From: an uncultured Lentimicrobiaceae bacterium
Lineage (GTDB): Bacteria; Bacteroidota; Bacteroidia; Bacteroidales; 4484-276
Direction: 5' to 3'
Length of the DNA: 64,000 nucleotides
Assembly: GCA_964593705.1 (NCBI GenBank)
Contig: CAZQIV010000022.1
Span: 1,416 to 65,415 of the forward strand
A program made the translations under genes and the position numbers. Positions 6,808-41,342 of the stretch are shown piece after piece (the first letter of the stretch is position 1; the number at the start of each line of letters is the position of its first letter). Under the pieces are notes generated by a model. It had not been told where the DNA came from, ran no database searches, and worked only from the letters and a program-made list of their open reading frames with translations.

Positions 6808-6845
6808 TCGGTTGTTTTAACTGAAACAGCATATCGAAAGGAAAA

Positions 6846-7118
6846 ATGGAAAAGACAATAGATATTATCAAAGAAAAAAGGACAGTTCCCGAAGCGCTTA
6901 AAAGCAGGGTTAAAGAGGTAAACAAAATTAAGAGAGCGATAAAAAACGCACTGAAGGAGGAGCCTAAAACCATACCGCAGATTGCTCAGGAAACAGAACT
7001 TCCCCAGGACATAATTACTTATTACCTGATGACAATGAGGAAATTTGGAGAGCTTGAAACTGATGAGATTGATGATATGGATGAATACTTTACGTATAAA
7101 TTAACCACTAAGAAATAA
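6846..7118 (+). CDS. Small acidic hypothetical protein, possible winged-helix fold
   Basis: 90-aa ORF tightly packed between the two flanking cluster genes. The segment PKTIPQIAQETELPQDIITYYLMTMRKFGELE looks HTH-like. No recognised family. Confidence 0.4.
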   Translation: MEKTIDIIKEKRTVPEALKSRVKEVNKIKRAIKNALKEEPKTIPQIAQETELPQDIITYYLMTMRKFGELETDEIDDMDEYFTYKLTTKK

Positions 7119-7123
7119 GCATA

Positions 7124-12507: not shown

Positions 12508-12541
12508 TCGGTAAAAATAGGAATCCCCAGAGAAAATTGTA

Positions 12542-12574
12542 AGTCAGGGCGTGACTTTAAGCCACACCCTGACT
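12542..12574. repeat. AGTCAGGG hairpin element, third copy
   Basis: agtcagggcgtgactttaagccacaccctgact lies directly after the stop of the CotH pseudogene, possibly acting as a terminator. Confidence 0.7.
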
Positions 12575-12664
12575 GTGTTAAAGTTAAATGTTAGGTTTAA
12601 TGGTAGGATCGGGAAATCGGTTTTGCCTTTTTTTTGGTTTATCCAGGCTTGCTATCCCCGCTTT

Positions 12665-12706
12665 GGGTTCGCAGCCCCGAGGTACGAGGGGATCGCAACC
12701 CTGAAT
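12665..12706 (+). repeat. REP-like unit upstream of the RAYT gene
   Basis: gggttcgcagccccgaggtacgaggggatcgcaaccctgaat. Its end gcaaccctgaat is the inverted complement of attcagggttgc at 13364-13375. Confidence 0.8.
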
Positions 12707-12761
12707 GTTTGAAAAGTGCATGTGCATTTTTTTTTATTTTTATACGCTAAATCTTGAAAAG

Positions 12762-13343
12762 ATGCCATCAAAGAAAATTTTAACACCAGTTGAATCCGGG
12801 TTTACCTACCATATTTACAATCGTGGGAATAATTACCAGGATGTGTTTTTTAATGATGAAGACTATCTATTATTTTTGAATAAATTCAAATTCTATCTTG
12901 GAAATTATTGTTCTCTTTTTGCTTTTGCTTTATTGCCAAATCATTTTCACTTTCTTTTACGATCAAACGAAAATAATGCTGTGTCACAATTTAGTCAGCA
13001 ATACCTGAAATTCATACTCAGTTATACCAATAAAATCAATTATCGAATGAAAAGAAACGGCAGTTTGTTTTTAGCCCGATTCAGGAGGATTAAAATTGAA
13101 GACGAGGATTACCTGAAAAGATTGCTTTATTATATCCACCATAATCCAGTTAAACATGGAATTACTGAAAACTTTAAAACCTATAAATTTAATTCATATC
13201 AGATTTTCTTGTCCGATAAACCAACCGGTCTTGCCAGAAACGAGGCTATCTCCTGGTTCGGTGATTTAAAGGATTTTGCTGAATATCACGATTATTTTCA
13301 TGAAGAAGATATTATCAGAAAACTGACTTTTGAGGATGATTAG
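12762..13343 (+). CDS. REP-associated tyrosine transposase (RAYT) / IS200-like Y1 transposase family protein
   Basis: HUH motif LPNHFHFLL and Tyr motif YYIHHNPVKHG. About 190 aa from the ATG at 12762. Bracketed by inverted REP-like repeats. Confidence 0.8.
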   Translation: MPSKKILTPVESGFTYHIYNRGNNYQDVFFNDEDYLLFLNKFKFYLGNYCSLFAFALLPNHFHFLLRSNENNAVSQFSQQYLKFILSYTNKINYRMKRNGSLFLARFRRIKIEDEDYLKRLLYYIHHNPVKHGITENFKTYKFNSYQIFLSDKPTGLARNEAISWFGDLKDFAEYHDYFHEEDIIRKLTFEDD

Positions 13344-13363
13344 GTATGAATATTTATTTATAA

Positions 13364-13765
13364 ATTCAGGGTTGCAGCCTCATGGGTTCGCAGCCCCTCC
13401 CGAAGGGATTCCTATGGAGGAGGCACGAGGGGATCGCAACCCTACAACCCGAAAAGGATTGATGCAAACTTTTAAGCTATATTTTCTATCCTTCTCACAA
13501 GTATTATTGCATTTATCTTTCTCAGATTTTTGCAAATTGAAATTATAGGGTTGCGATCCTTTCCCTGCGGTCAAGGCTGCGAACCCAAGCCAAGATATTC
13601 CGGCCTGGGTTCGCAGCCCCGAGGTACGAGGGGATCGCAACCCTGAAATACCCTAAAACAGAATCCCTCAGGAATTTATCACTATGTTCCAGGGTTGCGA
13701 TCCCTTCCCTGCGGTCAGGGCTGCGAACCCACGCCGGGTTGCTGGCCCCGAGGAAGGAGCATGCC
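13364..13765. repeat. BIME-like cluster of REP units in alternating orientation
   Basis: Forward units gggttcgcagcccc..ggggatcgcaaccc at 13384-13443 and 13607-13644. Inverse units agggttgcgatcc..ggctgcgaaccc at 13548-13586 and 13691-13730. One further degenerate unit follows. Confidence 0.85.
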
Positions 13766-13926
13766 ACAAGCCTGGAAGTACAATCTACGATTTCAAGTTT
13801 TTCAATGTGTCCCAAATCCCCCCCATTCGTTGATAAAATTTCCCAATCTGTTGATTTTCTTTTTTATTCTATACTTTAGTTGCCACTTTTGTTGAATATT
13901 TAAATAGACTCAAATACATTTAAAAC

Positions 13927-16200
13927 ATGAAAACAAGAAACTTTTTACTTTTCTTACTCATTGGCTTGATCAACACTAGTTTCAGCCAAGGATTTTACGA
14001 CATGAACACCATTAACACCATCGAGGTTACTTTCGAAGAATCCAACTGGGATTACCTGCTCGATCAAATGGCTGCGGCCGGAGATGAAGAGCGACTGATG
14101 GGCTCGGTGAACATCAACGGGCAGGTGTTCGACAGTGTGGGTGTGCGCTACAAAGGCAATAGTTCATACAATCAAAACCAGGTTAAAAACCCGCTCAACA
14201 TTAAGCTCGACTACATTATCAACGATCAGGAAATTGAGGGCTATGGCACCCTGAAACTTGCCAACGGGTTTAAGGATCCCAGTTTTGTACGCGAGGCTTT
14301 GGGCTATGAAATTGCCAGGAAATATTTCCCGGCCAGCGAAACCAACTACGCCAATGTTTATGTTAACGGAACACATCTTGGGCTATATACCAGTGTGCAG
14401 GACGTGGATAAGTTTTTTATGCGTACACATTTAGGAAGTGATGAAGGCGCAAGACTCAAGGGTGAAATTAGCGGTGGCGGCGGCCCTCCTTCGGGCACTG
14501 TATGGAAATATTACGGTAATGATTCGACCGATTATTTTAATTATTACGCACTGGAATCAAATATTGGATGGACCGAATTGATTCATTTCCTCGACACCCT
14601 GAGCAATCACACCAGCTATGTTGACCAGGTTTTAAACATTGACAGGCATTTGTGGTTTTTGGCCTTTCAAAATTTGTTGGTTAACCTGGATAGTCCCATT
14701 AATAATCCGCAGAATTATTATATTTTTCAAGATGGCACGGGTCGATTTAATCCTATTCCCTGGGATTTGAACGAAAGTTTTGGCGTATTCAGAAGTTTGC
14801 AAGGTGGCGGTAATTTAAACACAAATCAGTTGCAACAATTTAGCCCGTTCAACAATCTTACAAGCAACGATCATCCCATCATTAGTAAAATTCTGGGCAA
14901 CGACACTTACAGTAAAATGTACATTGCACACTTTAAAACGATGGTGGAAGAAATATTTGAAAATGGCTGGTACGAAGAAAGGGCGTTAGAAATTCAGGAT
15001 ATCATAGATGCGGATGTGCAAGCCGATCCAAATAAGTTTTATTCTTACAGCAACTTTATCAGTAATATTAATAATAGTGTAGGTGGTGGCCCCAATGCGG
15101 TAATAGGAATAACACAGTTAATGGAAGCCCGTGTTAATTATCTGCTCGGATTGGATGAATTTGAAGCACAGCAACCCGAATTCTCAAACATCAGTTTTAG
15201 CCCGGAGCAACCCTCGCCAGGCACTGAAATTTGGTTTAGCGCAGAAGTTGATTATAGCACACAGGTGTATTTATTATACCGACAAAGCTCCACGGCTACA
15301 TTCCAAAAATCTGAAATGTTTGACGATGGTAATCATAACGATGGTGCTGCCGGTGATGGTGTTTATGGAATTTCACTTGTGGCCGGAAACACCGGGATTC
15401 AGTATTATTTCTATGCTGAAAATAATGATGCGTCCGCGTTTATGCCGACACATGCCGAATATGAATTTTATACCATTGCCATAAGCAGCGATTTGGTAAT
15501 TAACGAATTTATGGCCGACAATGAAACTGCCGTGGCCGATCAGGATGGAGAATATGACGATTGGATTGAATTTTACAACAATGGCACCGAAGATATTGTA
15601 TTGCTGGGATTCTACTTGAGCGATGATGCCGGCGAACCCGATCAGTGGACATTTCCCGATACTACAATTGCTGCAGGTGGATATTTAATTGTTTGGACTG
15701 ATAATGATGAAGATCAGGATGGTTTACACGCCAATTTCAAACTCTCAAAATCGGGCGAAAGCATTTTACTTTCGGATGCAACTTTAAATATTATTGATGA
15801 GATTGCTTTTGAGCAACAAAAAACGGATACCACTACCGGAAGATTTCCAAACGGAACCGGCGGGTTTAAATTTATGATTCCTACTTTTGGTGGGGAAAAT
15901 GTTGATGAAATTACTGCAGTTGAAGAAATAGCGCAAATAGAGTCGGCATCCTTAGGGGCTTATCCGAACCCATTCAATAATCAGTTGCATTTTGTAATTA
16001 AGCTTGAAAACACATCAAGTGTTAGCCTTATGGCGCATAATGTTTTTGGCCAAATGGTAACTTTGAAAGACACGGAAGGATTGCCTGCCGGAACACACGA
16101 ATTGACCATTAGCACGATTGATTTACCTGCTGGTTTATGGATTTGCAGTATGAAAACAGATGAACAGATACGGACCATAAAGCTGATGAAAACAAAGTAG
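13927..16200 (+). CDS. CotH kinase-family protein with lamin-tail domain and T9SS C-terminal sorting domain
   Basis: Signal peptide, CotH core and LTD (LVINEFMADNETAVADQDGEYDDWIEFYN). The C-terminus LGAYPNPFNNQLHFVIKLE...GLWICSMKTDEQIRTIKLMK is typical of Por/T9SS sorting domains. Confidence 0.85.
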   Translation: MKTRNFLLFLLIGLINTSFSQGFYDMNTINTIEVTFEESNWDYLLDQMAAAGDEERLMGSVNINGQVFDSVGVRYKGNSSYNQNQVKNPLNIKLDYIINDQEIEGYGTLKLANGFKDPSFVREALGYEIARKYFPASETNYANVYVNGTHLGLYTSVQDVDKFFMRTHLGSDEGARLKGEISGGGGPPSGTVWKYYGNDSTDYFNYYALESNIGWTELIHFLDTLSNHTSYVDQVLNIDRHLWFLAFQNLLVNLDSPINNPQNYYIFQDGTGRFNPIPWDLNESFGVFRSLQGGGNLNTNQLQQFSPFNNLTSNDHPIISKILGNDTYSKMYIAHFKTMVEEIFENGWYEERALEIQDIIDADVQADPNKFYSYSNFISNINNSVGGGPNAVIGITQLMEARVNYLLGLDEFEAQQPEFSNISFSPEQPSPGTEIWFSAEVDYSTQVYLLYRQSSTATFQKSEMFDDGNHNDGAAGDGVYGISLVAGNTGIQYYFYAENNDASAFMPTHAEYEFYTIAISSDLVINEFMADNETAVADQDGEYDDWIEFYNNGTEDIVLLGFYLSDDAGEPDQWTFPDTTIAAGGYLIVWTDNDEDQDGLHANFKLSKSGESILLSDATLNIIDEIAFEQQKTDTTTGRFPNGTGGFKFMIPTFGGENVDEITAVEEIAQIESASLGAYPNPFNNQLHFVIKLENTSSVSLMAHNVFGQMVTLKDTEGLPAGTHELTISTIDLPAGLWICSMKTDEQIRTIKLMKTK

Positions 16201-16900: not shown

Positions 16901-18007
16901 ATGAAAACGAAGCGGGGCATACTGAGGCATAGCGAAATACTGGTTATCCTGGCCATTTGGCTGGTTATCATTGCAATGCCGGTTCTTTTATTCCAGCGCA
17001 ACGACACAATTAATTGGTCCAATGTTTTTGTGGCCTGGGTTGGGGTGCTGCCCTTTTTGCTGTTGTTTCTGGTGAATCATTTCTTGCTGATCCCGTTTTT
17101 GTTTTTTAAGAAAAGCAAAGCACTTTATTTCTTGTCCGCCCTAAGTTTGGTAGTTGGGTTTACATTTACAACCTGGTTTATGGAAAAAGGAAATGCTGAC
17201 TTTCGTCCAAAACCACTGCCCGGAATGCGGCAGCTGCCCCCGTCTCACATCGAAAATCAACAATTACCAGATCGGCCACCACACCAGGGTCAACAAGGTA
17301 GAAATCCCATTCCTTTTCCTCCTTTTGTGAACACCTTTATTATTGCGATGTTGGTGATTGGTTTTGATACCGGACTGCGGATGATTTTCAGATGGTCGAA
17401 GCTGGAGCAGGAAAAAACATTATTGGAAAAGGAAAATGTGCAAAATCAACTGGCTTTTTTGAGAACACAGGTGAGCCCGCATTTTTTTATGAACACCCTC
17501 AACAACATCCACGCGCTGATCGATGTGAACAGCGAGGAGGCCAAAGATTCAATTATTAAACTTTCGAAGTTGATGCGACACCTGCTTTATGAATCGCAGG
17601 GCGAAAAAACCTCACTTAAAAAAGAGATTGAATTTATTAAAAGCTATGTGAATTTGATGAAACTGCGTTTCTCGGATAAGGTAAAGATTAGCGTGGTAGT
17701 TCCTGATTTAATCCCCGAAAAGGATATTCCCCCGCTGCTTTTTACTTCCGTTATCGAAAATGCATTTAAACATGGCGTAAGCTATTCCAGCGCATCATTT
17801 ATCAATATTAAAATAAGTACCCCGGAAAACAAATTGCAGGTTATGATTGCCAATAGCAAAACAGCACAAAATGATGAAAATGATGAAAATGGTATCGGGC
17901 TGGAAAACACCCGAAAACGACTTGAACTAATTTATCCGGGGAAATTTGATTTCAGGATTGTTGATAATGAAAAAGATTTTACCGTAATAATATCCATACC
18001 ATTATGA
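16901..18007 (+). CDS. LytS/YehU-family sensor histidine kinase
   Basis: N-terminal TM helices, then LAFLRTQVSPHFFMNTLNNIHALI (His_kinase motif) and an ATPase region ENAFKHG...GIGLENTRKRL. Confidence 0.85.
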   Translation: MKTKRGILRHSEILVILAIWLVIIAMPVLLFQRNDTINWSNVFVAWVGVLPFLLLFLVNHFLLIPFLFFKKSKALYFLSALSLVVGFTFTTWFMEKGNADFRPKPLPGMRQLPPSHIENQQLPDRPPHQGQQGRNPIPFPPFVNTFIIAMLVIGFDTGLRMIFRWSKLEQEKTLLEKENVQNQLAFLRTQVSPHFFMNTLNNIHALIDVNSEEAKDSIIKLSKLMRHLLYESQGEKTSLKKEIEFIKSYVNLMKLRFSDKVKISVVVPDLIPEKDIPPLLFTSVIENAFKHGVSYSSASFINIKISTPENKLQVMIANSKTAQNDENDENGIGLENTRKRLELIYPGKFDFRIVDNEKDFTVIISIPL

Positions 18008-18720
18008 TAAGATGTATTGCCATAGACGACGAACCCCTGGCCCTGAAACAAATGGCCGGATACATCAATAAAACACCATTTTTGGAACTGGTGGGGCAGT
18101 TTGAGAGTGCCATGATTGCACTTGCATTTTTGCAGGAAGATTCTGTGGATTTGATGTTTGTGGATATTAATATGCCCGACCTGAGCGGGATGGATTTCGT
18201 AAAGTCGCTGGACAATCCGCCGGGCATCATCTTCACCACAGCATACAGCGAATATGCGCTGGAAGGTTTTAAGGTAGATGCCATTGATTACCTTCTCAAA
18301 CCTATTGGTTATTCCGATTTTTTGAAATCGGCAAATAAAGCCTTGAAAATCCTTGCTCCAAAAATAGATACACCAAAGGAAGAATTAAAAAGCAATGGTG
18401 ATTTTCTGTTGATAAAGTCCGAGCATAGGATTGTACGGGTTAATTTCGCCGACATCAAATACATCGAAGGCATGCGTGAGTATGTTCGCATTCACCTGAT
18501 AAATACAAAACCGGTAATGACATTGCTGAGTATGAAAGCCCTGGAAGCACAATTACCCGGTAATCAATTTATGCGGGTGCATCGTTCCTTTATCGTCAAC
18601 TTAAGCCGGCTTACCACGATCGAGAGAAATCGTATTGTTTTTGATGAAGATGTTTATATTCCCATCAGCGAGCAATACCAAAAACCTTTCCGTGAGTGGA
18701 TGGAACGGTATTTTATGTGA
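18004..18720 (+). CDS. LytTR/AlgR-family response regulator
   Basis: Start overlaps the kinase stop (ATGA). Receiver domain IAIDDEP...DLMFVDINMP plus a LytTR DNA-binding domain (IKYIEGMREYVRIH...FMRVHRSFIVN). Confidence 0.9.
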   Translation: MIRCIAIDDEPLALKQMAGYINKTPFLELVGQFESAMIALAFLQEDSVDLMFVDINMPDLSGMDFVKSLDNPPGIIFTTAYSEYALEGFKVDAIDYLLKPIGYSDFLKSANKALKILAPKIDTPKEELKSNGDFLLIKSEHRIVRVNFADIKYIEGMREYVRIHLINTKPVMTLLSMKALEAQLPGNQFMRVHRSFIVNLSRLTTIERNRIVFDEDVYIPISEQYQKPFREWMERYFM

Positions 18721-18751: not shown

Positions 18752-18934
18752 TTATATGGAAATATTAGCATCTTTGAGAATGCCCTGCAATGTGCCTTTT
18801 GGAATGTCCTTACTGTGTATCGGTACAACAATTATTTGCATACCCGTTTTTTTATAGATAGCATGACTACCAGTTTGTCTTACGAATACAAACCCATTGC
18901 TTTCGAGAAGTTTTATTAATTCCCGGGCTTTCAT
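18752..18934 (-). CDS. hicA: HicA-family mRNA interferase toxin
   Basis: 60 aa, MKARELIKLLESNGFVFVRQTGSHAIYKK... is canonical HicA. Overlaps the hicB stop. Confidence 0.85.
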   Translation of the reverse strand: MKARELIKLLESNGFVFVRQTGSHAIYKKTGMQIIVVPIHSKDIPKGTLQGILKDANISI

Positions 18935-19125
18935 GATGCCAGTTCCAGAGACTTCTTTGAAATCTGATCTTCCATGAGTATCTCAATATAAAGTTGTATA
19001 GCATCTTTAAGGTGTTCCATTGCTTCTTTTATGGTTTTCCCGTGTGAATGACATCCCGGCAATTCCGGACACCATGTATGAAAATCGTTCCCGTCTTTTT
19101 CAATTTCAAAAGTAAGTGGTTTCAT
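18931..19125 (-). CDS. hicB: HicB-family antitoxin
   Basis: 64 aa, FHTWCPELPGCHSHGKTIKEAMEHLKDAIQLY, typical of the HicB/UPF0150 fold. Confidence 0.8.
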   Translation of the reverse strand: MKPLTFEIEKDGNDFHTWCPELPGCHSHGKTIKEAMEHLKDAIQLYIEILMEDQISKKSLELAS

Positions 19126-19334: not shown

Positions 19335-19889
19335 ATGATCGATCAAATGGGAACCAGGATTAAGAAGAAGCGAGAGGGTTTAGGTCTTCAGATTAAAGAC
19401 CTATCAAAGCAAATCGGTATGACTTCCAGTTTGATAAGCCAAATTGAAAACGCCAAGGCCTTCCCATCTATTGTTACACTTAAAAAACTGGCCGATGCCT
19501 TGCATACTACCGTGGGAGAATTGATAGGTGAAAACGAAAACGAAATAAAAAACCCTTTACTAAAAGTAGTGGAGCGTCGTTTTGCCAAAAGCAACAACAA
19601 GGGAACTTCTTCACATTTATTATCCAATCATTTTCCGTCAAAACAAATCGAACCCTATTTGCTCAGGTTTGAAGAAAATGCAGATTCAAAAGGAGTAATG
19701 ACAAGTAAATTTCCCGGACAGGAATTTTGTTTTGTGTTAAAAGGAAATTTTGAAGCCACCGTGAATCGTAAAAAACACCTTTTGGAAGAGGGCGACAGCT
19801 TTTATTTCGATTCCATTAAACCCCATGTATTCAAAAATATATCAGAAGGAAATGCCGAGTTGATCTGGGTAATTACTCCTTATAGTTAA
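19335..19889 (+). CDS. XRE-family HTH regulator with C-terminal cupin domain
   Basis: HTH_3 segment LSKQIGMTSSLISQIENAKAFPSIVTLKKLADAL. Cupin segment GQEFCFVLKGNFEATV...GDSFYFDSIKPHVFKN. Confidence 0.8.
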   Translation: MIDQMGTRIKKKREGLGLQIKDLSKQIGMTSSLISQIENAKAFPSIVTLKKLADALHTTVGELIGENENEIKNPLLKVVERRFAKSNNKGTSSHLLSNHFPSKQIEPYLLRFEENADSKGVMTSKFPGQEFCFVLKGNFEATVNRKKHLLEEGDSFYFDSIKPHVFKNISEGNAELIWVITPYS

Positions 19890-19930
19890 ATCAGGTAATT
19901 AATAAAAACACATTTATAAAACAAATTAAA

Positions 19931-21460
19931 ATGTCACATTCAGAAAAAGTTGATTTTACCAAACAGTTCGCACACCACGGAATTAGTGAAGATGCAGCAC
20001 GGGTAATAGAAAAAGAAAACCTTTTACCTGCAACTCTCATCAATAAATTACATCACTGTTTTCCTCAGTATTCCATCTTAAAAGAGGAAAGCGTACCAAT
20101 GTTTACCTCTGATAAAAACCGTTATACAGGTATCGATGGTTTTAGAGAAATTATAGCAGTTCTTAACAATAACGGCATTGATATTGGCTATATCGAGGAG
20201 CGTGAGCTTTTTATTAATGTGTATCGTTTTTTGGCTACAAAGCACGTTTTAAATACCATCAATTGGAAAGATTACGTAAGAGATTCAGTATTCCAACTGG
20301 TATTTCCACAACCCGGAATGATGAAACCGGAATTGATTAAAAGCTATATGAATGCCAAATCAGAGGAGGAAAAACGAAAACTCTGTGATGAGTATATTCG
20401 CAAAACCAATCCCCACGATGGTAAACAATTATTGAACAAGGCCTTTTTTGAAAACGAAGACGGCGATATTGAAATCCTAAACGGTAGTCAGCATAAATAC
20501 CCCCAGTGTTTCCTTATTTTTGATAAAACCACTCAAAGTTGTTTTGCCTTCTGCAATTATTGTTTCCGCCATGCGCAAGTAAGAGGCGATGAAGATATGT
20601 TTATCCAGGATGATATTGATCAGGTTCATAAATATTTGAGAAAACACAAAGAAGTAACCGACATCTTAATCACCGGTGGCGATGGTGCATTTATGCCTTA
20701 TTCAAGAATGAAAGCGTATTTAATGCCGCTAATTACCGATCCTGAATTGTCGCATATCAGAAATGTTCGTGTGGCCTCCAGGGGGTTAACCTACGACCCT
20801 CAAAGAATTATCATGTCAAGGTATGATGATACTTTAGCGCTATACAAAGAGTTAATTGAAAATGGAATTCAAATGATTTGGATGGGACATTTCTCCGGAC
20901 CAAAAGAATTGATGAACCTAACCACCATTGCTGCTGCTCGCCGTTTAAGAGCCATTGGTATGAATTTAAAAAGTCAGAGTCCAATCATGAAGCACATCAG
21001 CCTATTCCCTGATAAAAATGGTGGAATTGATATTGATAAATCTGCTCAAAACTGGATTGACCTGGGTCATGTATTAATGATGCTGGGTATCGGATTCCAC
21101 TCTATGTACTATGCTCGCCCAACTGGCGAACACCACTATTTCACCGCTCCTTTGGCCGATATCAATAAGGTGTTTAGCAAAATTTACAGAAGCCTTCCGT
21201 CCATTGGTCGTCCATCGAGATATATCTCCATGACCTCCTCAGCCGGCAAAGCATCCATGCTGGGTACCGTGGAAGTGAACGGGAAAACAGCCTTTGCCCT
21301 CAAATTTAACGAAGCCAGAAATATGGAATGGATGGATAAAGTGTATTTGGCTCAATATGATGATAAACAAAACACCATCGAAAAGCTGAAGCCATTTGAA
21401 GGAGATAAGTATTATTATTCAGATGAATTAGAAGCCATCGAAAAAAGTTTAGAGAAATAG
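19931..21460 (+). CDS. KamA-family radical SAM aminomutase (2,3-aminomutase-like), long form
   Basis: CxxxCxxC cluster motif SCFAFCNYCFRH at residues 204-211. KamA-type N-terminal INWKDYVRDSVFQLVFPQ. ITGGDG motif. 509 aa. Confidence 0.75.
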   Translation: MSHSEKVDFTKQFAHHGISEDAARVIEKENLLPATLINKLHHCFPQYSILKEESVPMFTSDKNRYTGIDGFREIIAVLNNNGIDIGYIEERELFINVYRFLATKHVLNTINWKDYVRDSVFQLVFPQPGMMKPELIKSYMNAKSEEEKRKLCDEYIRKTNPHDGKQLLNKAFFENEDGDIEILNGSQHKYPQCFLIFDKTTQSCFAFCNYCFRHAQVRGDEDMFIQDDIDQVHKYLRKHKEVTDILITGGDGAFMPYSRMKAYLMPLITDPELSHIRNVRVASRGLTYDPQRIIMSRYDDTLALYKELIENGIQMIWMGHFSGPKELMNLTTIAAARRLRAIGMNLKSQSPIMKHISLFPDKNGGIDIDKSAQNWIDLGHVLMMLGIGFHSMYYARPTGEHHYFTAPLADINKVFSKIYRSLPSIGRPSRYISMTSSAGKASMLGTVEVNGKTAFALKFNEARNMEWMDKVYLAQYDDKQNTIEKLKPFEGDKYYYSDELEAIEKSLEK

Positions 21461-21518
21461 TAATATTGAAATTAGTGGTTTTCAAATCATTGCTTATATT
21501 ATAATTAAAATCATTTTT

Positions 21519-22232
21519 ATGATTAATAAAATAGTAAAATCGGCAGCCGAAGCAGTAAAAGACATCCATGATGGAGCCACCATTATGATTGGTGGCTTTG
21601 GTGAGGCCGGTAGCCCAATTGAGCTCATACATGCGCTGATCGATCAGGGAGCAAAAAATCTCACCGTGGTAAGTAATAATACAGGAAGCGGAAATGTGGG
21701 ACTGGCCGCCTTAATCGAGCAGAAAAGGGTGAAAAAGATGATTTGCTCGTTTCCTCGTACTGCTAACTCAACGGTATTTCCCGAACTTTATAATGCCGGA
21801 GAAATAGAGCTGGAACTGGTTCCCCAGGGAACCTTAGCCGAAAGGATCAGGGCCGGAGGTGCCGGAATTCCGGCGTTCTACACACCGGCTTCCGTGAATA
21901 CTCCCCTGGCCATTGGCAAAGAATCCAGGATTTTTGATGATGTAGAATATGTGCTGGAACGTGGCATTAAGGCTGATTTCTCATTAGTGAAATGCGTACA
22001 AGCTGATTGCTATGGCAATTTAACCTATCATGCAACGGCCCGTAATTTCGGGCCTATCATGTGTACTGCCGCCAAAACAGCCATTGTTCAGGCTAAAAAA
22101 GTGGTGGATGCCGGAGCCATAGATCCTGAAATTGTTGTAACACCCGGAATTTTCGTGAAGCATATTGTTGAAATTTCAAACCCTGCCAATGAATCGGAAT
22201 TGGTAGCTCAAAAACTAAAATATCCATGGTAG
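21519..22232 (+). CDS. 3-oxoacid CoA-transferase subunit A
   Basis: DGATIMIGGFGEAGSPIELIHALIDQGAKNLTVVSNN and PQGTLAERIRAGGAGIPAFYTP are classic family I CoA-transferase A-subunit motifs. Confidence 0.9.
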   Translation: MINKIVKSAAEAVKDIHDGATIMIGGFGEAGSPIELIHALIDQGAKNLTVVSNNTGSGNVGLAALIEQKRVKKMICSFPRTANSTVFPELYNAGEIELELVPQGTLAERIRAGGAGIPAFYTPASVNTPLAIGKESRIFDDVEYVLERGIKADFSLVKCVQADCYGNLTYHATARNFGPIMCTAAKTAIVQAKKVVDAGAIDPEIVVTPGIFVKHIVEISNPANESELVAQKLKYPW

Positions 22233-22879
22233 AAAATAAAATAAAAATCGGTTGGAGTAAAACCGAAATGGCCCAAAATGTAGCCCAGGATATTCCCAAC
22301 GGATCCTATGTGAACCTGGGAATTGGAATGCCCGAAATGGTGGCCGCCTTTGTACCCGAAGGCCGCGAGCTGATCTATCAAACAGAAAATGGTTTGCTAG
22401 GAATGGGTGCTGTACCGCAAGCCGGACAGGAAGACCCCGAGTTAATCAATGCCGGGAAAAAACCGGTTACAACCATCCCGGGGGCTTGTTTTTTTCATCA
22501 TGCCGATAGCTTTACCATGATAAGGGGAGGGCATATTGATGTATGTGTTTTGGGAGCTATGCAAATATCTAAGCATGGCGATTTGGCTAACTGGTCAACC
22601 GGAGCGGCCAATGCTATCCCTGCCGTTGGAGGAGCCATGGATTTAGTGGCAGGAGTAAAAAGAATTTTGGTTATAACCCAGCATAATACCAAAGACGGTA
22701 AATCTAAAATAGTGAATCAGTGTAGCTATCCGCTCACCGGAAAAGGTGTTGTGGAAACCATTTATACTAATCTGGCCATCATCGATGTAAAAAAAGAAGG
22801 ACTTTTCGTGAGGGAAATGGGGCCAAATGTGGATTTTGAATATTTACAAAAGCACACAGAAGTGCAATTATTTCAATAA
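22226..22879 (+). CDS. 3-oxoacid CoA-transferase subunit B
   Basis: Overlaps subunit A by 7 nt. Catalytic-Glu motif YQTENGLLGMG and GGAMDLVAG. Confidence 0.9.
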   Translation: MVENKIKIGWSKTEMAQNVAQDIPNGSYVNLGIGMPEMVAAFVPEGRELIYQTENGLLGMGAVPQAGQEDPELINAGKKPVTTIPGACFFHHADSFTMIRGGHIDVCVLGAMQISKHGDLANWSTGAANAIPAVGGAMDLVAGVKRILVITQHNTKDGKSKIVNQCSYPLTGKGVVETIYTNLAIIDVKKEGLFVREMGPNVDFEYLQKHTEVQLFQ

Positions 22880-22897
22880 TTTAAACGTATAAGACCT

Positions 22898-24244
22898 ATG
22901 AGTAATACTTATAATGTAAATCGTAAGTATAGCCAGGCTCTCTACAAAAGGGCCAAAGAAGTGATGACAGGAGGGGTGAGTAGAAACACTATTTACCGTC
23001 GTCCCCATCCATTTTATGTAGCTACAGCAAAAGGTAGCTATGTTACCGATATCGATGCCAATACCAGGGTTGACTTTGCGAATAATATGGCATCACTTAT
23101 TCATGGCCATGCACATCCTGCCATTATTGAGGCTGTTACCGAGCAATTGCACCGGGGAACAGCTTATACTCTGGGAAGTGAGGTAGAAATAGAGTTTGGT
23201 GAGTTATTGGTTGAAAGAAATCATAATTTTGAAAAAATTAGATTTGTTAACTCTGGCACCGAGGCTGTGATGTCGATGATAAAAGCAGCCCGGGCCTATA
23301 CCGGACGGCCAAAAATAGCCAAAGCCGAAGGAGCTTATCATGGCACTTACGATTTTGCCGAAATCAGTCAAATTGTCAAACCCGATAATTGGGGAGATAT
23401 TGACAAGCCCAATTCTGTTCCTGTTACTGCCGGAACACCGGAAGATGTGAAAAATGATGTGATTGTTTTTCCGTATAATGACACTGAGCGTACCTTAAAG
23501 TTGCTTGAAGCCAATAAAAAAGACCTGGCTTGTGTATTGCTCGATCCGGTTTCTCACCGTATAGGAATGTTCCCCATCGAAAATGATTATTTAATAGCCA
23601 TCTACAATTGGACTAGAAAAAATAAAGTGCTTTTGGTATTTGATGAAGTAGTTACCTATCGTGTAACTTATAGTGGCGCTCAGCATCTATATCCTGTAAA
23701 GCCCGACATGACTGCGCTTGGGAAAATTATTGGCGGTGGGTTTCCCGTTGGAGCCATCGCCGGAGATGCTAAAATTATGTCTGTTTTTGATCCTACCCGA
23801 AAAATTATTAAACAGCCCCACTCGGGTACATTCTCGGCCAACCCTATTACTATGACTGCCGGGAAAGTAGCCATGGAGCTTTTTGACAGGAAAGCTGTAG
23901 ATGATATCAATAACATAACAGATATTGCTAAAAAGCAAATAGGAGAAGCCATTAAGGAAGCCGATGTGCCTGTAATCATTACCGGAGCCGGATCTATGTT
24001 CCGCATGCATTTTCGTTATAAGGCTCCGCGAAATTATCGCGAAACTTATCAGTGCCCGGAAGAAAGAAAACTGATCGTTGATTTTCTCGATTATCTATTC
24101 TTTCATGAAGACCTGATTATGATCAATACCTTTGCTTGTATGCTGGCCACCACCATCACCCAGGTAGAAGTAGATCGACTTACGCAATCGTTGCTTAAAG
24201 GGTTTAAAAAATTTAAAGCTGAGATTCATCGCTTTGCCAAGTAA
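22898..24244 (+). CDS. Class III (GSA-aminomutase-like) PLP-dependent aminotransferase
   Basis: FVNSGTEAVMSMIKAARAYTGR, VFDEVVT, and the PLP-Lys motif MTALGKIIGGGFPVGA that closely mirrors glutamate-1-semialdehyde aminomutase. Confidence 0.85.
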   Translation: MSNTYNVNRKYSQALYKRAKEVMTGGVSRNTIYRRPHPFYVATAKGSYVTDIDANTRVDFANNMASLIHGHAHPAIIEAVTEQLHRGTAYTLGSEVEIEFGELLVERNHNFEKIRFVNSGTEAVMSMIKAARAYTGRPKIAKAEGAYHGTYDFAEISQIVKPDNWGDIDKPNSVPVTAGTPEDVKNDVIVFPYNDTERTLKLLEANKKDLACVLLDPVSHRIGMFPIENDYLIAIYNWTRKNKVLLVFDEVVTYRVTYSGAQHLYPVKPDMTALGKIIGGGFPVGAIAGDAKIMSVFDPTRKIIKQPHSGTFSANPITMTAGKVAMELFDRKAVDDINNITDIAKKQIGEAIKEADVPVIITGAGSMFRMHFRYKAPRNYRETYQCPEERKLIVDFLDYLFFHEDLIMINTFACMLATTITQVEVDRLTQSLLKGFKKFKAEIHRFAK

Positions 24245-24380
24245 TTAGATGTTTGAAGTTCGAAGATAAAAACCATATTTTAATAATAAATCAGTTTTAT
24301 AGATTGCTGGTTTCAGACTTTAAATTTCCATTTTAATAAAAAGAAAGTTCAAAGAATGAAATGCTCATTATAATTATTAA

Positions 24381-24492
24381 CACCCACAGGCATGAATGTC
24401 AGAAGGACTCCTATGGAGAAACTTTATTTTATTTCTCCGTAGGAGTCCTTCGAACATCCGTGCATTTCCCAAAAAATCGGGACAGGTTGTGG
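24381..24492. repeat. MITE-like palindromic element inside the operon
   Basis: 20-bp stem gaaggactcctatggagaaa (24402-24421) pairs with tttctccgtaggagtccttc (24432-24451), with one G-U position. The outer arms are also partly complementary. A half copy lies at 30390-30470. Confidence 0.75.
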
Positions 24493-24502
24493 CCAAATTT
24501 TT

Positions 24503-25711
24503 ATGCAGATGAAAAATGTTTTTATATGTGATGCCATCAGAACACCGGTAGGACGATATGCAGGAACCTTAGCTTCGGTTAGAGCCGATGATTTAGCCGC
24601 CATTCCTCTAAAAACCCTGATGGATAGAAATCCGGATATGGACTGGAAGGCTATTGATGATATATTGATAGGCTGTGCCAATCAGGCGGGCGAAGACAAC
24701 CGAAATGTGGCTCGTATGGCTTCTCTTTTGGCGGGTTTTTCTGAGTCTATTTCGGCTGTTACCATCAATCGTCTGTGTGGTTCGGGTATGGATGCCATTG
24801 GAAGTGCTGCAAGAGCCATTAAAGCCGGAGAAGCTGAATTGATGATTGCCGGAGGTATGGAAAGCATGTCGAGATCACCTTTAGTTATGGGAAAAGCCGA
24901 AACAGCTTTTGGCCGTACTCAAAAACTGGAAGATACCACCATTGGCTGGCGATTTGTAAATAAAAAGCTGGATAAAATGTATGGCACAGAAGGAATGATA
25001 TTTACTGCTCAAAACATTGCAGACGATTTCAATATCAGCCGTGAAGATCAGGATAAATTTGCCCAATGGAGTCAGGAAAAAGTGCGTAAAGCGCAAGAAG
25101 ATGGAAGTCTGGCCCGCGAAATTATCCCGGTTATAATTCCACAACGCAAGGCCGATCCTATTGTCTTTTCAAAAGATGAGCATCCCCGGCTTTCATCCCT
25201 AGAAAAATTGGCAAATCTAAAATCTATAACAGGACCCAATGGCAGCATTACTGCTGGAAATGCATCAGGCGTAAACGATGGTGCAGCAGCTCTGCTCTTG
25301 GCTTCGGAGGAAGCCGTAAAAAAACATAAGCTTACTCCCAAAGTGAAAATTTTAGGTATGGCTACCGCGGGTGTTTTGCCACGAATTATGGGGATGGGTC
25401 CGGTTCCGGCCACCAGGAAAGTACTCAAGCTCACAGGCCTCAGTCTCGATGATATGGATATTATAGAACTCAACGAAGCTTTTGCTTCCCAATCGCTTGG
25501 CTGTACCCGCGAACTTGGTTTGGCTGATCGTGATCCCCGCGTTAACCCGCTGGGAGGAGCCATTGCCCTGGGACATCCTTTGGGAATGAGTGGAGCTCGT
25601 ATCACCACAAGTGCCTATTACCAACTGATTAACTCCGATACTAAATATGCCCTTTGCACTATGTGTATCGGTGTGGGGCAAGGCATTGCTGTTGTGCTGG
25701 AGAAAGTATAG
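24503..25711 (+). CDS. Acetyl-CoA C-acyltransferase (thiolase), 3-oxoadipyl-CoA-thiolase-like
   Basis: VFICDAIRTPVGRYAGTL, active-site NRLCGSGMDAI, NEAFASQ and the C-terminal CIGVGQGIA motif. Alternative ATG at 24509. Confidence 0.9.
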   Translation: MQMKNVFICDAIRTPVGRYAGTLASVRADDLAAIPLKTLMDRNPDMDWKAIDDILIGCANQAGEDNRNVARMASLLAGFSESISAVTINRLCGSGMDAIGSAARAIKAGEAELMIAGGMESMSRSPLVMGKAETAFGRTQKLEDTTIGWRFVNKKLDKMYGTEGMIFTAQNIADDFNISREDQDKFAQWSQEKVRKAQEDGSLAREIIPVIIPQRKADPIVFSKDEHPRLSSLEKLANLKSITGPNGSITAGNASGVNDGAAALLLASEEAVKKHKLTPKVKILGMATAGVLPRIMGMGPVPATRKVLKLTGLSLDDMDIIELNEAFASQSLGCTRELGLADRDPRVNPLGGAIALGHPLGMSGARITTSAYYQLINSDTKYALCTMCIGVGQGIAVVLEKV

Positions 25712-25821: not shown

Positions 25822-25869
25822 GTGAGTTATAACTCACAAATATCATAATAATTTTGAGTTATAACTCAA
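25822..25869. promoter_or_regulatory. Twin 16-bp palindromes (operator-like) upstream of the ATPase gene
   Basis: gtgagttataactcac (25822-25837) and ttgagttataactcaa (25854-25869), centres 32 bp apart, about 40 bp before the ATG at 25908. Confidence 0.45.
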
Positions 25870-25907
25870 ATTGTGTATGTTTGTGGCTTTTATCAAGCAT
25901 CAATATT

Positions 25908-27035
25908 ATGATAAACAGGATTCTGGAAAATACCATAAACGAAAAACTCTTTAAGGGAAAAGCTATCATTATTTTGGGTCCTCGCCAGGTGGGAAAGTCA
26001 ACCTTAATGAACATGCTTGAAACCAGGATGGATAAAAAAATTCTCTACCTGAATTGCGACAATAATGACATAAAAAAGCAACTCACCAAACCCGGGATTA
26101 ATGATCTTCGCAGAATGATTGGCGAAAATGAAGTTGTGCTGATTGATGAGGCTCAACGGGTTCTGGATATTGGTTTGACTTTGAAATTGATAACTGACCA
26201 AATACCCGAAATTCAGGTGATCATAACAGGGTCATCCTCACTTGACTTGTCGAACCTGGTGAATGAACCATTGACCGGCAGGAAATTTGAATACCAGCTA
26301 TTCCCATTGTCAATAAAAGAGCTGGTTGATCACACAGGCTTTATCGAAACCAACCGGAACCTCACACAACATCTAATTTTCGGAACCTATCCTGATGTAG
26401 TGAATAATAAAGGGAATGAACCTGAAATTTTGAGCAATCTTGTAAGCAGTTATCTGTTTAAGGATGTATTTATGTACCAGGATATACGTAAGCCTGAATT
26501 TATCGAACAACTCCTGGAAGCGCTTGCTTTACAGGTAGCTTCAGGGGTTTCGTTTAACGAACTGGCACAACTTTTAAAAACAGACGCTCACACTGTTCAA
26601 CGATATATCAGCCTGCTCGAAAAAGCTTTTATCATTTTCAGATTACGTTCGTATAGTCGTAATATCAGGAATGAATTGAAGAAAAGTCGTAAAATCTATT
26701 TTTACGATAATGGTGTGCGAAATGCTATCCTGGCAAACTATAGTCCTGTTTCATCACGAACTGATATGGGTGCACTGTGGGAAAATTTTTTCATCTCTGA
26801 ACGGATAAAATTCCTTCACTACAATAAAATATTTGCCAGGCATTTTTTTTGGCGAACAACCCAGCAGCAAGAAATTGATTACCTGGAAGAATATGATGGT
26901 AAACTGACCGCTTTCGAAATTAAGTGGAATCCAGCTAAGAAGGTTACCTTTCCCCTAACTTTTACACGTAATTATCCGGAGGCAACAACTCATGTAGTTA
27001 ATCCGGATAATTTTTGGGAATTTGTCGGGGTGTAA
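25908..27035 (+). CDS. AAA-family ATPase with DUF4143-like C-terminal domain
   Basis: Walker A GPRQVGKST and Walker B VLIDEAQ. C-terminal EIDYLEEYDGKLTAFEIKW is typical of this widespread ATPase family. The ORF-track N-terminal extension was rejected. Confidence 0.8.
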   Translation: MINRILENTINEKLFKGKAIIILGPRQVGKSTLMNMLETRMDKKILYLNCDNNDIKKQLTKPGINDLRRMIGENEVVLIDEAQRVLDIGLTLKLITDQIPEIQVIITGSSSLDLSNLVNEPLTGRKFEYQLFPLSIKELVDHTGFIETNRNLTQHLIFGTYPDVVNNKGNEPEILSNLVSSYLFKDVFMYQDIRKPEFIEQLLEALALQVASGVSFNELAQLLKTDAHTVQRYISLLEKAFIIFRLRSYSRNIRNELKKSRKIYFYDNGVRNAILANYSPVSSRTDMGALWENFFISERIKFLHYNKIFARHFFWRTTQQQEIDYLEEYDGKLTAFEIKWNPAKKVTFPLTFTRNYPEATTHVVNPDNFWEFVGV

Positions 27036-30389: not shown

Positions 30390-30470
30390 TGCCCCGATCA
30401 TTCGGGGGGCATGACTGTCCGAAGAACTCCTATGGAGAAACATCGTTCAATATTATCCGTGCATCCGTGG
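30390..30470. repeat. Half copy of the 24381-24492 element
   Basis: ccccgatcattcggggggcatgactgtccgaagaactcctatggagaaac...atccgtgcatcc parallels the arm of the palindromic element. Confidence 0.65.
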
Positions 30471-38349: not shown

Positions 38350-38360
38350 GGTTTTAGGTT

Positions 38361-39872: not shown

Positions 39873-39968
39873 TACTGTTTAAATTTTTAAAAAAATGAAA
39901 TTCGAATGCAGCCAACAATATGCGAAAATTGGATTTCGCAGGTCAGCATTCATCGGGAAACATAAAAT

Positions 39969-40424
39969 TTAAACAATAGCAGGAGGACCCCGTAAAGCGT
40001 TAGCTGCGGGGTAAAAAACAGAAGATATGAAAAACGGTTTATCCTTCGAAGGATTTGTTGAAAGGCAAGGTGACTCAAAAAAATCAGTTTGAAAAACCAC
40101 TGACACCAAAAATAGTATGCTGATTTTATTTAGAGGATTCGATTCCTGTAGGTTTGTTCTTGCGTAAACAAAATTACATATTGCCGAAACATGATGATGA
40201 AGTGGAAAGGGGTGATTGTGTTCTTCGTTTGAACACTTTTCTTTACTATTTTCACCAAAAGAATCAACAAGACTTTGATTATCTAATAAACTATCTGCCG
40301 CGGGCTCATGATGATGATGGAGAATCATCTCATGACTTAATACTATCAGAAACGATAGCAATAGCGATATGGCATAAATTTTATTTTTCACGGGTGCAAA
40401 AATAGGGTATTTATTTATTTGCAT
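39969..40424 (-). CDS. Small membrane-anchored His-rich protein leading the RND operon
   Basis: One N-terminal TM helix, then HEMILHHHHEPA and EEHNHPFPLHHH. Ends ...RGPPAIV. Position is analogous to 55120-55497. Confidence 0.5.
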   Translation of the reverse strand: MQINKYPIFAPVKNKIYAISLLLSFLIVLSHEMILHHHHEPAADSLLDNQSLVDSFGENSKEKCSNEEHNHPFPLHHHVSAICNFVYARTNLQESNPLNKISILFLVSVVFQTDFFESPCLSTNPSKDKPFFISSVFYPAANALRGPPAIV

Positions 40425-40446
40425 TCAATCTTCATATTTTGTGTTT

Positions 40447-41337: not shown

Positions 41338-41342
41338 GTTTT

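Follow-up and report, generated by a model that had tools for sequence, protein, structure and literature searches.

A group of six genes on one strand was analyzed in the genome of an uncultured bacterium of the Lentimicrobiaceae (GenBank assembly GCA_964593705.1, contig CAZQIV010000022.1, positions 1,416 to 65,415). “The window” indicates this whole stretch of 64,000 nucleotides (64 kb), and positions are counted from its first letter. The genes code for a regulator (reg), a remote relative of the radical-SAM enzyme lysine 2,3-aminomutase (AM), two subunits of a CoA-transferase (ctA and ctB), a class III aminotransferase similar to glutamate-1-semialdehyde aminomutase (GSAM) and named AT here, and a thiolase (thl). 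They may form an operon for the degradation of an acidic amino acid by way of a beta-amino acid. A first-pass annotation, made from the letters alone, had placed six co-directional genes at positions 19335 to 25711, and all six open reading frames (ORFs) were indeed found on the plus strand with these coordinates (Table 1). The sequence motifs quoted at that time, CxxxCxxC, ENG, and TALGKIIGGGFPVGA, were all located in the encoded proteins.

Table 1. Features of the six-gene locus, with positions in the window
Feature	Position	Strand	Size	Basis
reg, XRE helix-turn-helix (HTH) plus cupin regulator, PuuR-like	19335-19889	+	184 aa	Pfam/NCBIfam
AM, remote KamA-family radical-SAM protein	19931-21460	+	509 aa	NCBIfam, motifs, fold
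ctA, CoA-transferase subunit A, PcaI/ScoA family	21519-22232	+	237 aa	TIGR02429
ctB, CoA-transferase subunit B, PcaJ/ScoB family	22226-22879	+	217 aa	TIGR02428, ENG
AT, class III (GSAM-like) aminotransferase, hemL-like	22898-24244	+	448 aa	Pfam/NCBIfam
Hairpin in the AT-thl spacer	24402-24451	+	20-bp stem	Folding energy
thl, 3-oxoadipyl-CoA thiolase, PcaF/PaaJ type	24503-25711	+	402 aa	TIGR02430/PRK09050

The successive distances between reg, AM, ctA, ctB, AT, and thl were 41, 58, −7, 18, and 258 bp, with the ctA and ctB genes overlapping by 7 bp. Genes of the kamDE, kdd, kce, and kal type, already reported as missing from the cluster, gave no Pfam match when the ORFs of 150 aa or more in the 64-kb window were examined. 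The regulator scored 46 bits with HTH_3 and 51.7 bits with Cupin_2 in Pfam, and its best NCBIfam match was PuuR with 67.5 bits, below the cut-off of 211. It is probably a local, effector-sensing regulator of the operon.

The AM protein carries the CxxxCxxC motif at residues 204 to 211 (C204, C208, and C211) and a GGD motif at residues 249 to 251. The cluster motif is located 79 residues further from the N terminus than C125 to C132 of lysine 2,3-aminomutase (LAM), close to the previous estimate of about 80 residues; the LAM reference sequence used was 100% identical to that of PDB entry 2a5h. All curated models of the KamA family, including that of arginine aminomutase, gave between 49 and 69 bits with AM at cut-offs between 199 and 650. 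The scores were 68.8 bits (cut-off of 199.2, not passed) for the family model TIGR00238, 56.1 (525.4) for AblA, 63.6 (396) for AblA_like_2, 49.0 (369.3) for EpmB, and 52.2 (650) for glutamate 2,3-aminomutase, TIGR04368. An enzyme of the EpmB type, which modifies elongation factor P (EF-P), or of the AblA type, which serves the formation of a compatible solute, had been named before as an alternative identity of AM, and these scores speak against both.

Despite the low scores, the predicted fold of AM was that of LAM. An AlphaFold model, for which 20 homologs were used, reached a pLDDT of 78.8 and a pTM of 0.84, and LAM (2a5h) was the sole strong structural match to this model in Foldseek, with an E value of 2e-14 over 425 to 430 columns and a target-normalized TM score of 0.63, which included essentially the whole LAM chain. 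Generic radical-SAM cores came next, with E values >1e-4. The sequence identity between AM and LAM was about 18% (46 to 48 bits), and sequence searches with hmmsearch and hhalign aligned only the region from about residue 100 to 265 of LAM. The alignment stops near LAM residue 263 because of an insertion in the AM family that follows residue 354, and the family also has its own N-terminal extension of about 80 to 100 residues.

The AM-LAM alignment was bridged via 31 intermediate relatives, which came from a profile search run exhaustively against 1.8 billion representatives. In the bridged alignment, C125, C129, and C132 of LAM corresponded to C204, C208, and C211 of AM, and R134, the residue that binds the alpha-carboxylate in LAM, corresponded to R213. 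K337 in the GGGGK motif of LAM was matched by K440 in SSAGK, and a lysine occupied this position in 39 of the 40 aligned sequences. Asp293 and Asp330 of LAM bind the epsilon-ammonium group of lysine, as Lepore et al. reportedly described in 2005 for the structure 2a5h, and Ruzicka and Frey are said to have found in 2007 that glutamate 2,3-aminomutase (Eam) has Lys and Asn at these two positions. The first-pass annotation had suggested an inspection of the residues around the distal group of the substrate, and in AM these are an invariant Arg396 in place of LAM Asp293 and Ser/Thr433 in place of Asp330. The pair of AM differs from the Lys/Asn pair reported for Eam but may be analogous to it. R213, R396, K440, and the three cluster cysteines were invariant in 20 AM homologs with 62 to 86% identity. 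AM possesses six cysteine residues (positions 43, 152, 193, 204, 208, and 211), none of them past residue 211, and the zinc-site cysteines of LAM (C268, C375, C377, and C380) have no counterpart in AM.

The distal site of AM appears to be charge-reversed, which points to an acidic substrate instead of lysine. Such a charge reversal argues against lysine and leucine and favors an amino acid whose distal group is a carboxylate. Of the substrates considered initially, 2-aminoadipate became the leading candidate, due to the thiolase model and the lysine-ketoglutarate reductase (LKR) and saccharopine dehydrogenase (SDH) genes of the Cloacimonadota described below, while lysine and leucine lost ground because of the invariant Arg at the Asp293 position. 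AM is proposed to be an L-2-aminoadipate 2,3-aminomutase with 3-aminoadipate as the product.

In a 50% clustering, the AM clade was covered by one full-length representative (872 bits) while the next relative reached 397 bits, so that the clade is tight and deeply separate. The nearest outgroup genes (P0244, P0249, P0251, and P0252) stand alone, and their gene contexts were uninformative. A broad, uncharacterized KamA-like group (P0249, P0252, P0255 to P0262, and others), composed of proteins of 400 to 530 aa with 150 to 300 bits to the family profile and below all NCBIfam cut-offs, also contains Arg at the position of LAM Asp293 and keeps the lysine for pyridoxal phosphate (PLP). The wider group may comprise further acidic-amino-acid aminomutases.

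The AT protein matched Aminotran_3 (PF00202) with 185 bits, and its motif TALGKIIGGGFPVGA holds the PLP lysine K276, which was aligned to K282 of the omega-transaminase StoTA from Sphaerobacter thermophilus. StoTA (6k8h) was also the best PDB match, with 366.7 bits over residues 5 to 426, followed by ForI of formycin synthesis with 321 bits. The score with the hemL model TIGR00713 was 339.4 bits and did not pass the cut-off of 527.3, which rules out HemL/GSAM proper, the name used by JGI for its homologs, as the identity of AT. StoTA accepts free beta- and gamma-amino acids as substrates, and R36 in its P-pocket has been proposed as the binder of the substrate carboxylate (PMC10589169). This residue corresponds to R29 of AT, which was kept in 98% of 57 enzymes of this type encoded in related loci and also in ForI. 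These enzymes furthermore share an invariant His220-Arg221, where StoTA has Arg-Ser. A transaminase acting only on alpha- or omega-amino substrates had been considered before as a possibility that would speak against a beta-amino acid route; the nearest characterized relative, however, uses free beta-amino acids.

A second enzyme that needs to be considered is Kat, a HemL-like class III 3-aminobutyryl-CoA aminotransferase that accepts only CoA or NAC thioesters and that adjoins a thiolase in Cloacimonas (PMC3149608). The Kat sequence was recovered from a metagenome locus, L082, by means of the primers published in that paper. At positions 1170 to 3985, this Cloacimonas acidaminovorans-like locus encodes an acetoacetyl-CoA thiolase (398 aa) and Kat (414 aa), followed by pyrG. 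AT and Kat were 28% identical over 377 residues, and Kat has Gly in place of R29, which would fit its strict need for a thioester. The termini of AtoA and AtoD, as given by the primers of PMC3149608, were unlike those of ctA and ctB. An identity of the six-gene locus with the region CLOAM0806-0810, and of AT with Kat (CLOAM0809, EC 2.6.1.111), was rejected on the basis of the 28% identity, the other type of thiolase, and the pyrG flank. Since AT is nearer to StoTA, keeps the Arg, and is in this respect unlike Kat, a free beta-amino acid is favored as its substrate, and the same comparison favors the order aminomutase, transaminase, CoA-transferase, and thiolase for the reactions. AT is proposed to be a 3-aminoadipate:2-oxoglutarate beta-transaminase that forms 3-oxoadipate.

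Both CoA-transferase subunits passed the cut-offs of their models, ctA with 339.2 bits in TIGR02429 (cut-off of 128.5) and ctB with 296.7 bits in TIGR02428 (cut-off of 243.55), although these PcaIJ/ScoAB subfamily models span the specificities for 3-oxoadipate as well as for acetoacetate. The catalytic Glu motif ENG is located at residues 54 to 56 of ctB. The best PDB matches of ctA were succinyl-CoA:3-ketoacid CoA-transferases (3cdk, 227 bits), with AtoD lower at 164 bits. The two subunits are proposed to be a succinyl-CoA:3-oxoadipate CoA-transferase. The similarity of the thiolase to the 3-oxoadipyl-CoA type, seen already in the first reading of the sequence, was borne out at the equivalog level: thl passed the pcaF model TIGR02430 (664.7 bits versus 597) and PRK09050 (679.8 versus 605), and it matched PcaF, the beta-ketoadipyl-CoA thiolase of Pseudomonas putida (6pca), over its full length with 544 bits. 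The catalytic residues are Cys92 (CGSG), His358 (GHP), and Cys388 (CIG). With the PhaA model, the score was 268 bits versus 740, and the identity to the Kat-linked acetoacetyl-CoA thiolase of Cloacimonas was 39%. According to these matches, thl is proposed to cleave 3-oxoadipyl-CoA with CoA into succinyl-CoA and acetyl-CoA.

Relatives of AM were encoded on 470 stretches in a scan of 185,579 species, with one genome per species. The locus counts given here rest on the best 80 of these 470 stretches with 10-kb flanks, and presence was scored by tblastn with the six proteins of the window in those loci only that contained enough DNA. More than 1370 AM homologs, 60 to 91% identical, were found, nearly all of them in Bacteroidota-type metagenomes. 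They are named “hypothetical protein” by NCBI and often “L-lysine 2,3-aminomutase” by JGI, where the homologs of AT carry the label “glutamate-1-semialdehyde 2,1-aminomutase”. The order AM-ctA-ctB-AT-thl was kept in almost all of the 80 loci: AM was followed by ctA in 76 of 77 loci, by ctB in 71 of 72, by AT in all 64, and by thl in 51 of 59. A homolog of reg was located directly upstream of AM less often (27 of 75 loci) and was not present in the Marinifilum loci L001 to L005. The consistency with which ctA, ctB, AT, and thl follow AM indicates that the grouping of these genes is not due to chance. A lack of conservation in relatives, which the first-pass annotation had listed as a possible objection, can be set aside, since the co-conservation was very strong across phyla.

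The loci of this five-gene cassette span the Bacteroidota, Cloacimonadota, Edwardsbacteria, Acidobacteria, Neomarinimicrobiota, Balneolales/Rhodothermaceae, Elusimicrobia, and Saprospirales. Carriers in the Bacteroidota include Marinifilum, with an AM 85 to 86% identical to that of the window, other Bacteroidales, and Flavobacteriaceae, and many of them are Bacteroidales of marine sediments. Cultured carriers are Marinifilum fragile (JCM 15579), M. breve, M. flexuosum (DSM 21950), and Lutimonas halocynthiae (CECT 8444). When all ORFs were clustered, no further gene was common to more than 14 of the 80 loci. Shared neighbors were housekeeping genes of single lineages, such as those for miaA, the CCA-adding enzyme, or murF, and when the surroundings of the cassette were searched for genes of transporters, aldehyde dehydrogenases, or decarboxylases, only such lineage-specific housekeeping genes emerged. 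Because no other gene was conserved, the five enzymes constitute the whole conserved module, with no dedicated transporter in most lineages. In six Bacteroidales loci (L050, L054, L056, L066, L073, and L075), a gene for a beta-class carbonic anhydrase (Pro_CA, 172 bits) was located directly 3' of thl, on the same strand and 16 to 66 bp past its end (e.g., L054:15547-16251). This neighbor could be a lineage-specific chance event or could indicate a link to CO2/bicarbonate.

A link to lysine was visible in four species of the Cloacimonadota (L015, L019/L086, L046, and L063). Here, a gene for LKR is located upstream of the cassette and AM starts 14 to 17 bp later, with one inserted gene in this arrangement in L019/L086. 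The LKR protein matched the LKR domain of human aminoadipate-semialdehyde synthase (AASS, 8e8u) over the full length with 265 bits. Upstream of LKR, a glutamate-forming saccharopine dehydrogenase is encoded, with 314 bits to 1e5l and 270 bits to the human SDH domain. On the 3' side of thl (15 bp in L046) follows the gene for a 740-aa transporter of the amino-acid-permease/SLC12 family and, in some of these loci, for a second protein of the saccharopine dehydrogenase family after the transporter. The Cloacimonadota operons can be read as a putative route from lysine via saccharopine and aminoadipate semialdehyde into the cassette.

A homolog search with LKR returned mainly Cloacimonadota. In three genomes, LKR homologs 59 to 65% identical to the query are part of a different, conserved same-strand cluster (L087:8633-19865, L088:8542-19859, and L089:8668-21296). 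Its order is saccharopine dehydrogenase, LKR, a fusion of an acyl carrier protein and a HpcH/citrate-lyase-beta-like protein, a CitF-like protein, an isocitrate-dehydrogenase-family (Iso_dh) enzyme, an HD protein, and two aconitase-family proteins. This cluster reads like a catabolism of lysine in which the front end of the alpha-aminoadipate pathway is run backwards with a citrate-lyase-like “homocitrate lyase”, and it is possibly another undescribed route. The cassette and the citrate-lyase-type module look like alternative fates of aminoadipate. Nuclear magnetic resonance (NMR) has revealed aminoadipate itself in Bizionia argentinensis, a marine flavobacterium (PMC9478572).

Three independent lines of evidence, the cationic site of AM, the identity of thiolase and transferase, and the linkage to saccharopine genes, converge on a dicarboxylic substrate with six carbon atoms. 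2-Aminoadipate is a product of lysine breakdown through saccharopine. On balance, the operon is best understood as a catabolic unit that is complete in itself and acts on an acidic alpha-amino acid, with L-2-aminoadipate as the most likely one, although this reading is only somewhat better placed than all others together. In the first step of the pathway suggested, AM would perform a radical-SAM/PLP-dependent 1,2-amino shift from L-2-aminoadipate to 3-aminoadipate, with Arg213 on the alpha-carboxylate, Lys440 as the carrier of PLP, and Arg396 on the distal carboxylate. AT would subsequently transfer the amino group from the beta position to a 2-oxo acid, for which 2-oxoglutarate is the probable candidate, and release free 3-oxoadipate. 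The third step, as expected from the PcaIJ/ScoAB family, would be the transfer of CoA from succinyl-CoA to form 3-oxoadipyl-CoA, and the fourth, as expected from the equivalog-level match, a PcaF-type thiolysis into acetyl-CoA and succinyl-CoA. Succinyl-CoA from the fourth step would be re-used in the third, which would close a CoA cycle. The net reaction would convert 2-aminoadipate, 2-oxoglutarate, and CoA to glutamate, succinate, and acetyl-CoA. Five proteins would suffice for this route, which would not need oxygen, 2-oxoadipate dehydrogenase, or glutaryl-CoA dehydrogenase, and the XRE-cupin regulator probably senses the substrate.

The general scheme of aminomutase, beta-transaminase, CoA-transferase, and thiolase can be advanced with good confidence. 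The logic of the first-pass annotation, from an alpha-amino to a beta-amino acid, a beta-keto acid, a beta-ketoacyl-CoA, and thiolysis, was in keeping with the synteny, the motifs, and the protein families. The chances are evenly balanced that the cassette represents an unrecognized catabolism of lysine or 2-aminoadipate with a new 2-aminoadipate 2,3-aminomutase and 3-aminoadipate as an intermediate and new natural metabolite, present in roughly 470 species-level genomes, in which the saccharopine pathway would be joined to the end steps of the beta-ketoadipate pathway independently of O2. A search of 8 million full texts revealed no account of the cassette or the route, of 3-aminoadipate in a defined pathway, or of an aminoadipate aminomutase; in agreement with the first-pass annotation, the gene combination did not appear as a characterized pathway in any paper found.

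Evaluation of this assignment needs to consider several points that weigh against it. The mapping of the substrate site of AM is a bridged sequence alignment and not a superposition of coordinates. Arg is longer than Asp, and the pocket could suit glutamate as well or better. The pcaF model may also capture thiolases for other dicarboxylyl-CoAs. In 8 of 59 loci, no thiolase gene adjoined the cassette, and a Roseivirgaceae metagenome-assembled genome (L010:9321-12874) contained the regulator, the aminomutase, and the transaminase only, with no CoA-transferase or thiolase within 10 kb. In the latter case, the missing enzymes may have their genes at another site of the genome, or the beta-keto acid may be used in a different way. 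The LKR-SDH link is that of one phylum: the window and the other 76 loci did not contain a lysine-pathway gene within 10 kb. Finally, no aminoadipate-semialdehyde dehydrogenase was present in the LKR/SDH-linked clusters, which leaves one step to aminoadipate unaccounted for.

The main competitor as the substrate is glutamate, unlikely as it is in our judgment. L-Glutamate would be converted by the same pathway logic to beta-glutamate (3-aminoglutarate) and 3-oxoglutarate, and 3-oxoglutaryl-CoA subsequently to malonyl-CoA and acetyl-CoA, or a decarboxylation would yield acetoacetate, acetoacetyl-CoA, and two acetyl-CoA. A cationic distal site is also reported for Eam, and the long Arg396 would suit a shorter substrate. 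Glutamate is also far more abundant than aminoadipate, beta-glutamate is generally known as a solute of marine sediments and methanogens, which agrees with the many carriers among marine-sediment Bacteroidales, and ScoAB-type transferases use acetoacetate. On the other hand, AM remained far below the equivalog cut-off of TIGR04368, and thl is a PcaF equivalog and not an acetoacetyl-CoA thiolase, as indicated by the PhaA score and the low identity to the Cloacimonas enzyme. We know of no precedent for a thiolysis of 3-oxoglutaryl-CoA, the use of malonyl-CoA or malonate would need more genes, none of which was conserved nearby, and the Cloacimonadota operons couple the cassette to genes of the saccharopine pathway instead of glutamate genes. 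Should glutamate be the substrate nevertheless, the cassette would encode a new fermentation route for glutamate or beta-glutamate.

A different order of the reactions, as with Kat, appears improbable. In this case, the CoA-transferase would activate the beta-amino acid, the transaminase would act on the thioester, and thiolysis would follow, which would avoid a free, unstable beta-keto acid. The gene order AM, ctA, ctB, AT, and thl matches this order of reactions, and the HemL-like Kat provides the example of an enzyme restricted to thioesters next to a thiolase gene in Cloacimonas (PMC3149608). AT, however, is much nearer to StoTA than to Kat, keeps Arg29 where Kat has Gly, and is accompanied by a transferase from the 3-oxoacid-specific PcaIJ/ScoAB family. 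Moreover, free 3-oxoadipate is a normal and sufficiently stable metabolite of the beta-ketoadipate pathway.

Even less probable, and by a clear step, is a biosynthetic direction from succinyl-CoA and acetyl-CoA via 3-oxoadipyl-CoA, 3-oxoadipate, and 3-aminoadipate to 2-aminoadipate, which would feed a saccharopine-type lysine synthesis (LYS9/LYS1-like) or another product derived from aminoadipate. All four reactions are reversible in principle, and the Cloacimonadota genes resembled fungal LYS9 (1e5l, 314 bits) no less than the catabolic enzyme of humans. Bacteroidota, however, are generally known to make lysine through diaminopimelate, and no aminoadipate reductase or LysW-type genes were located nearby. 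An amino-acid-permease-family transporter is part of the same operon in Cloacimonadota, a local XRE-cupin (PuuR-like) regulator is generally known as typical of catabolic operons, the cassette stands alone in most genomes, and the LKR-SDH pair of the sister genomes is joined to a citrate-lyase-type enzyme and not to a homocitrate synthase. An AM acting as classical LAM in beta-lysine degradation, EF-P modification, or N-acetyl-beta-lysine synthesis is hardly credible, despite the JGI name of many homologs and LAM being the only solved structure that matched AM, because of the low scores (49 to 69 bits at cut-offs of 369 to 525 for EpmB, AblA, and the AblA-like model), the replacement of both lysine-binding Asp residues by Arg396 and Ser/Thr433, the missing zinc-site cysteines with only the three cluster cysteines invariant, and the fact that no kamDE, kdd, kce, kal, ablB, or epmA gene was found in the window or the loci.

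The unusually long spacer of 258 bp between AT and thl contains a very stable hairpin with a minimum free energy of −37.9 kcal/mol and a z-score of −10.4. Its arms are located at positions 24403 to 24421 and 24432 to 24450, and a third copy of the arm was found at positions 30422 to 30440 before a gene for a GH2 glycosidase (~30.4 kb). The regions 24390 to 24470 and 30400 to 30470 of the window represent a repeated intergenic element with a common core of about 35 nt (GGCATGAnTGTCnGAAGnACTCCTATGGAGAAAC), followed by CATCCGTG. This element was not found in any of 92 fetched loci and is outside the conserved cassette. Rfam gave no match to the hairpin nor anywhere across the whole window, and no run of T residues was present downstream of the stem. 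The hairpin is possibly an element for processing or stabilizing the transcript, or a small repeat insertion. Promoter and terminator scans yielded results at chance level, such scans being ill-suited to Bacteroidota.

In the surroundings of the operon, a HicA toxin (60 aa, PF07927, 80 bits) and a HicB-like antitoxin (64 aa) are encoded on the opposite strand (18752-19125, minus strand), between a two-component system of the LytTR type (histidine kinase and response regulator, 16901-18720) and the XRE-cupin regulator. Upstream of the LytTR pair (9988-16200) are genes for two CotH-kinase-family proteins; lamin-tail domains are present in one of the CotH proteins and in a separate intervening protein, and one protein of this region has a C-terminal sorting domain of the type 9 secretion system (T9SS). 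A sulfur-related cluster at positions 60 to 8275 encodes three FAD/4Fe-4S oxidoreductases that resemble proteins of the heterodisulfide reductase type, together with a Sulf_transp membrane protein and two proteins that contain rhodanese domains; such a gene set agrees with a lifestyle that is anaerobic or facultative. Immediately 3' of thl, a gene for an AAA_14 plus DUF4143 ATPase (25854-27035, plus strand) was not conserved at this position in other loci and is probably unrelated to the cassette. Two RND-type efflux systems (OEP, AcrB-family, and HlyD-family proteins) at positions 34076 to 41559 and 46371 to 55023 are accompanied by a cation diffusion facilitator, a secreted multicopper oxidase, and a membrane-fusion protein that contains a domain for the binding of heavy metals, a region that looks like metal resistance of the copper/silver type.

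To understand the biological meaning of the proposed 2-aminoadipate route, the cassette can be compared with known systems. AM shares with LAM (KamA of Clostridium subterminale, 2a5h) the fold over the whole chain, CxxxCxxC, the GGD/SAM motif, the carboxylate Arg, the PLP Lys, and presumably the chemistry of the radical 1,2-amino shift, but differs from it by the N-terminal extension, the insertion after residue 354, the D293R and D330S/T replacements, the lack of the zinc cysteines, and the gene context. Eam, the glutamate 2,3-aminomutase of Clostridioides difficile, is a KamA-family member in which the acidic distal site was changed to a basic/neutral one for an acidic amino acid. The Arg396/Ser-Thr433 pair of AM appears analogous, with Arg where Eam reportedly has Lys, yet the TIGR04368 score indicates that AM is not an ortholog of Eam. 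Descriptions of Eam do not, to our knowledge, mention genes for catabolic partners; AM, in contrast, belongs to a fixed five-gene cassette.

The third and fourth steps, as proposed, follow exactly the chemistry found at the end of the beta-ketoadipate pathway (PcaIJ and PcaF), in line with the NCBIfam cut-offs passed. There, 3-oxoadipate comes from the cleavage of aromatic rings, but in the cassette it would come from an amino acid via a beta-amino intermediate; no upstream pca or cat genes were located near the cassette, and its carriers are largely anaerobic or facultative bacteria of the FCB group. The characterized beta-transaminases StoTA (6k8h) and those of Mesorhizobium (2yku) and Variovorax (4ao9) belong to the same GSAM-like class III subgroup as AT. 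Their preferred substrates, however, are beta-amino acids of the aromatic or aliphatic kind, and no physiological pathway has been assigned to them. The saccharopine route to 2-oxoadipate and glutaryl-CoA uses homologs of the LKR/SDH proteins seen in the Cloacimonadota and the same 2-aminoadipate. The standard fate of 2-aminoadipate, however, is transamination at C2 followed by the 2-oxoadipate and glutaryl-CoA dehydrogenases, while in the proposed route the amine would be moved to C3 and succinyl-CoA plus acetyl-CoA would be formed. The Kat variant of lysine fermentation, also present in Cloacimonadota and Bacteroidota, relies on the same kinds of enzymes: an aminomutase of the KamA type, a beta-transaminase resembling HemL, a CoA-transferase with two subunits, and a thiolase (PMC3149608). 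The enzymes of the cassette are paralogs of these proteins and not orthologs, kamDE, kdd, and kce are missing, and the carbon chain would be cleaved after a single amino shift. Each enzyme comes from a known superfamily; new would be the clade of the aminomutase, whose specificity is probably new as well, and the architecture of the pathway.

Since several cultured carriers of the cassette exist, the question is open to a direct test. If the proposed route is true, a dicarboxylic amino acid with six carbon atoms would become the fourth class of substrates of radical-SAM 2,3-aminomutases beside lysine, glutamate, and arginine, and the annotation of more than 1000 proteins would be corrected. 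Enzymes that interconvert 2-aminoadipate, 3-aminoadipate, and 3-oxoadipate would be available for the production of beta-amino acids and of adipate or nylon precursors. Lysine and aminoadipate would be degraded without oxygen, 2-oxoadipate dehydrogenase, or glutaryl-CoA dehydrogenase, and this would explain how abundant bacteria of marine sediments and digesters (Marinifilaceae, other Bacteroidales, Flavobacteriaceae, and Cloacimonadota) can gain succinyl-CoA and acetyl-CoA from lysine.

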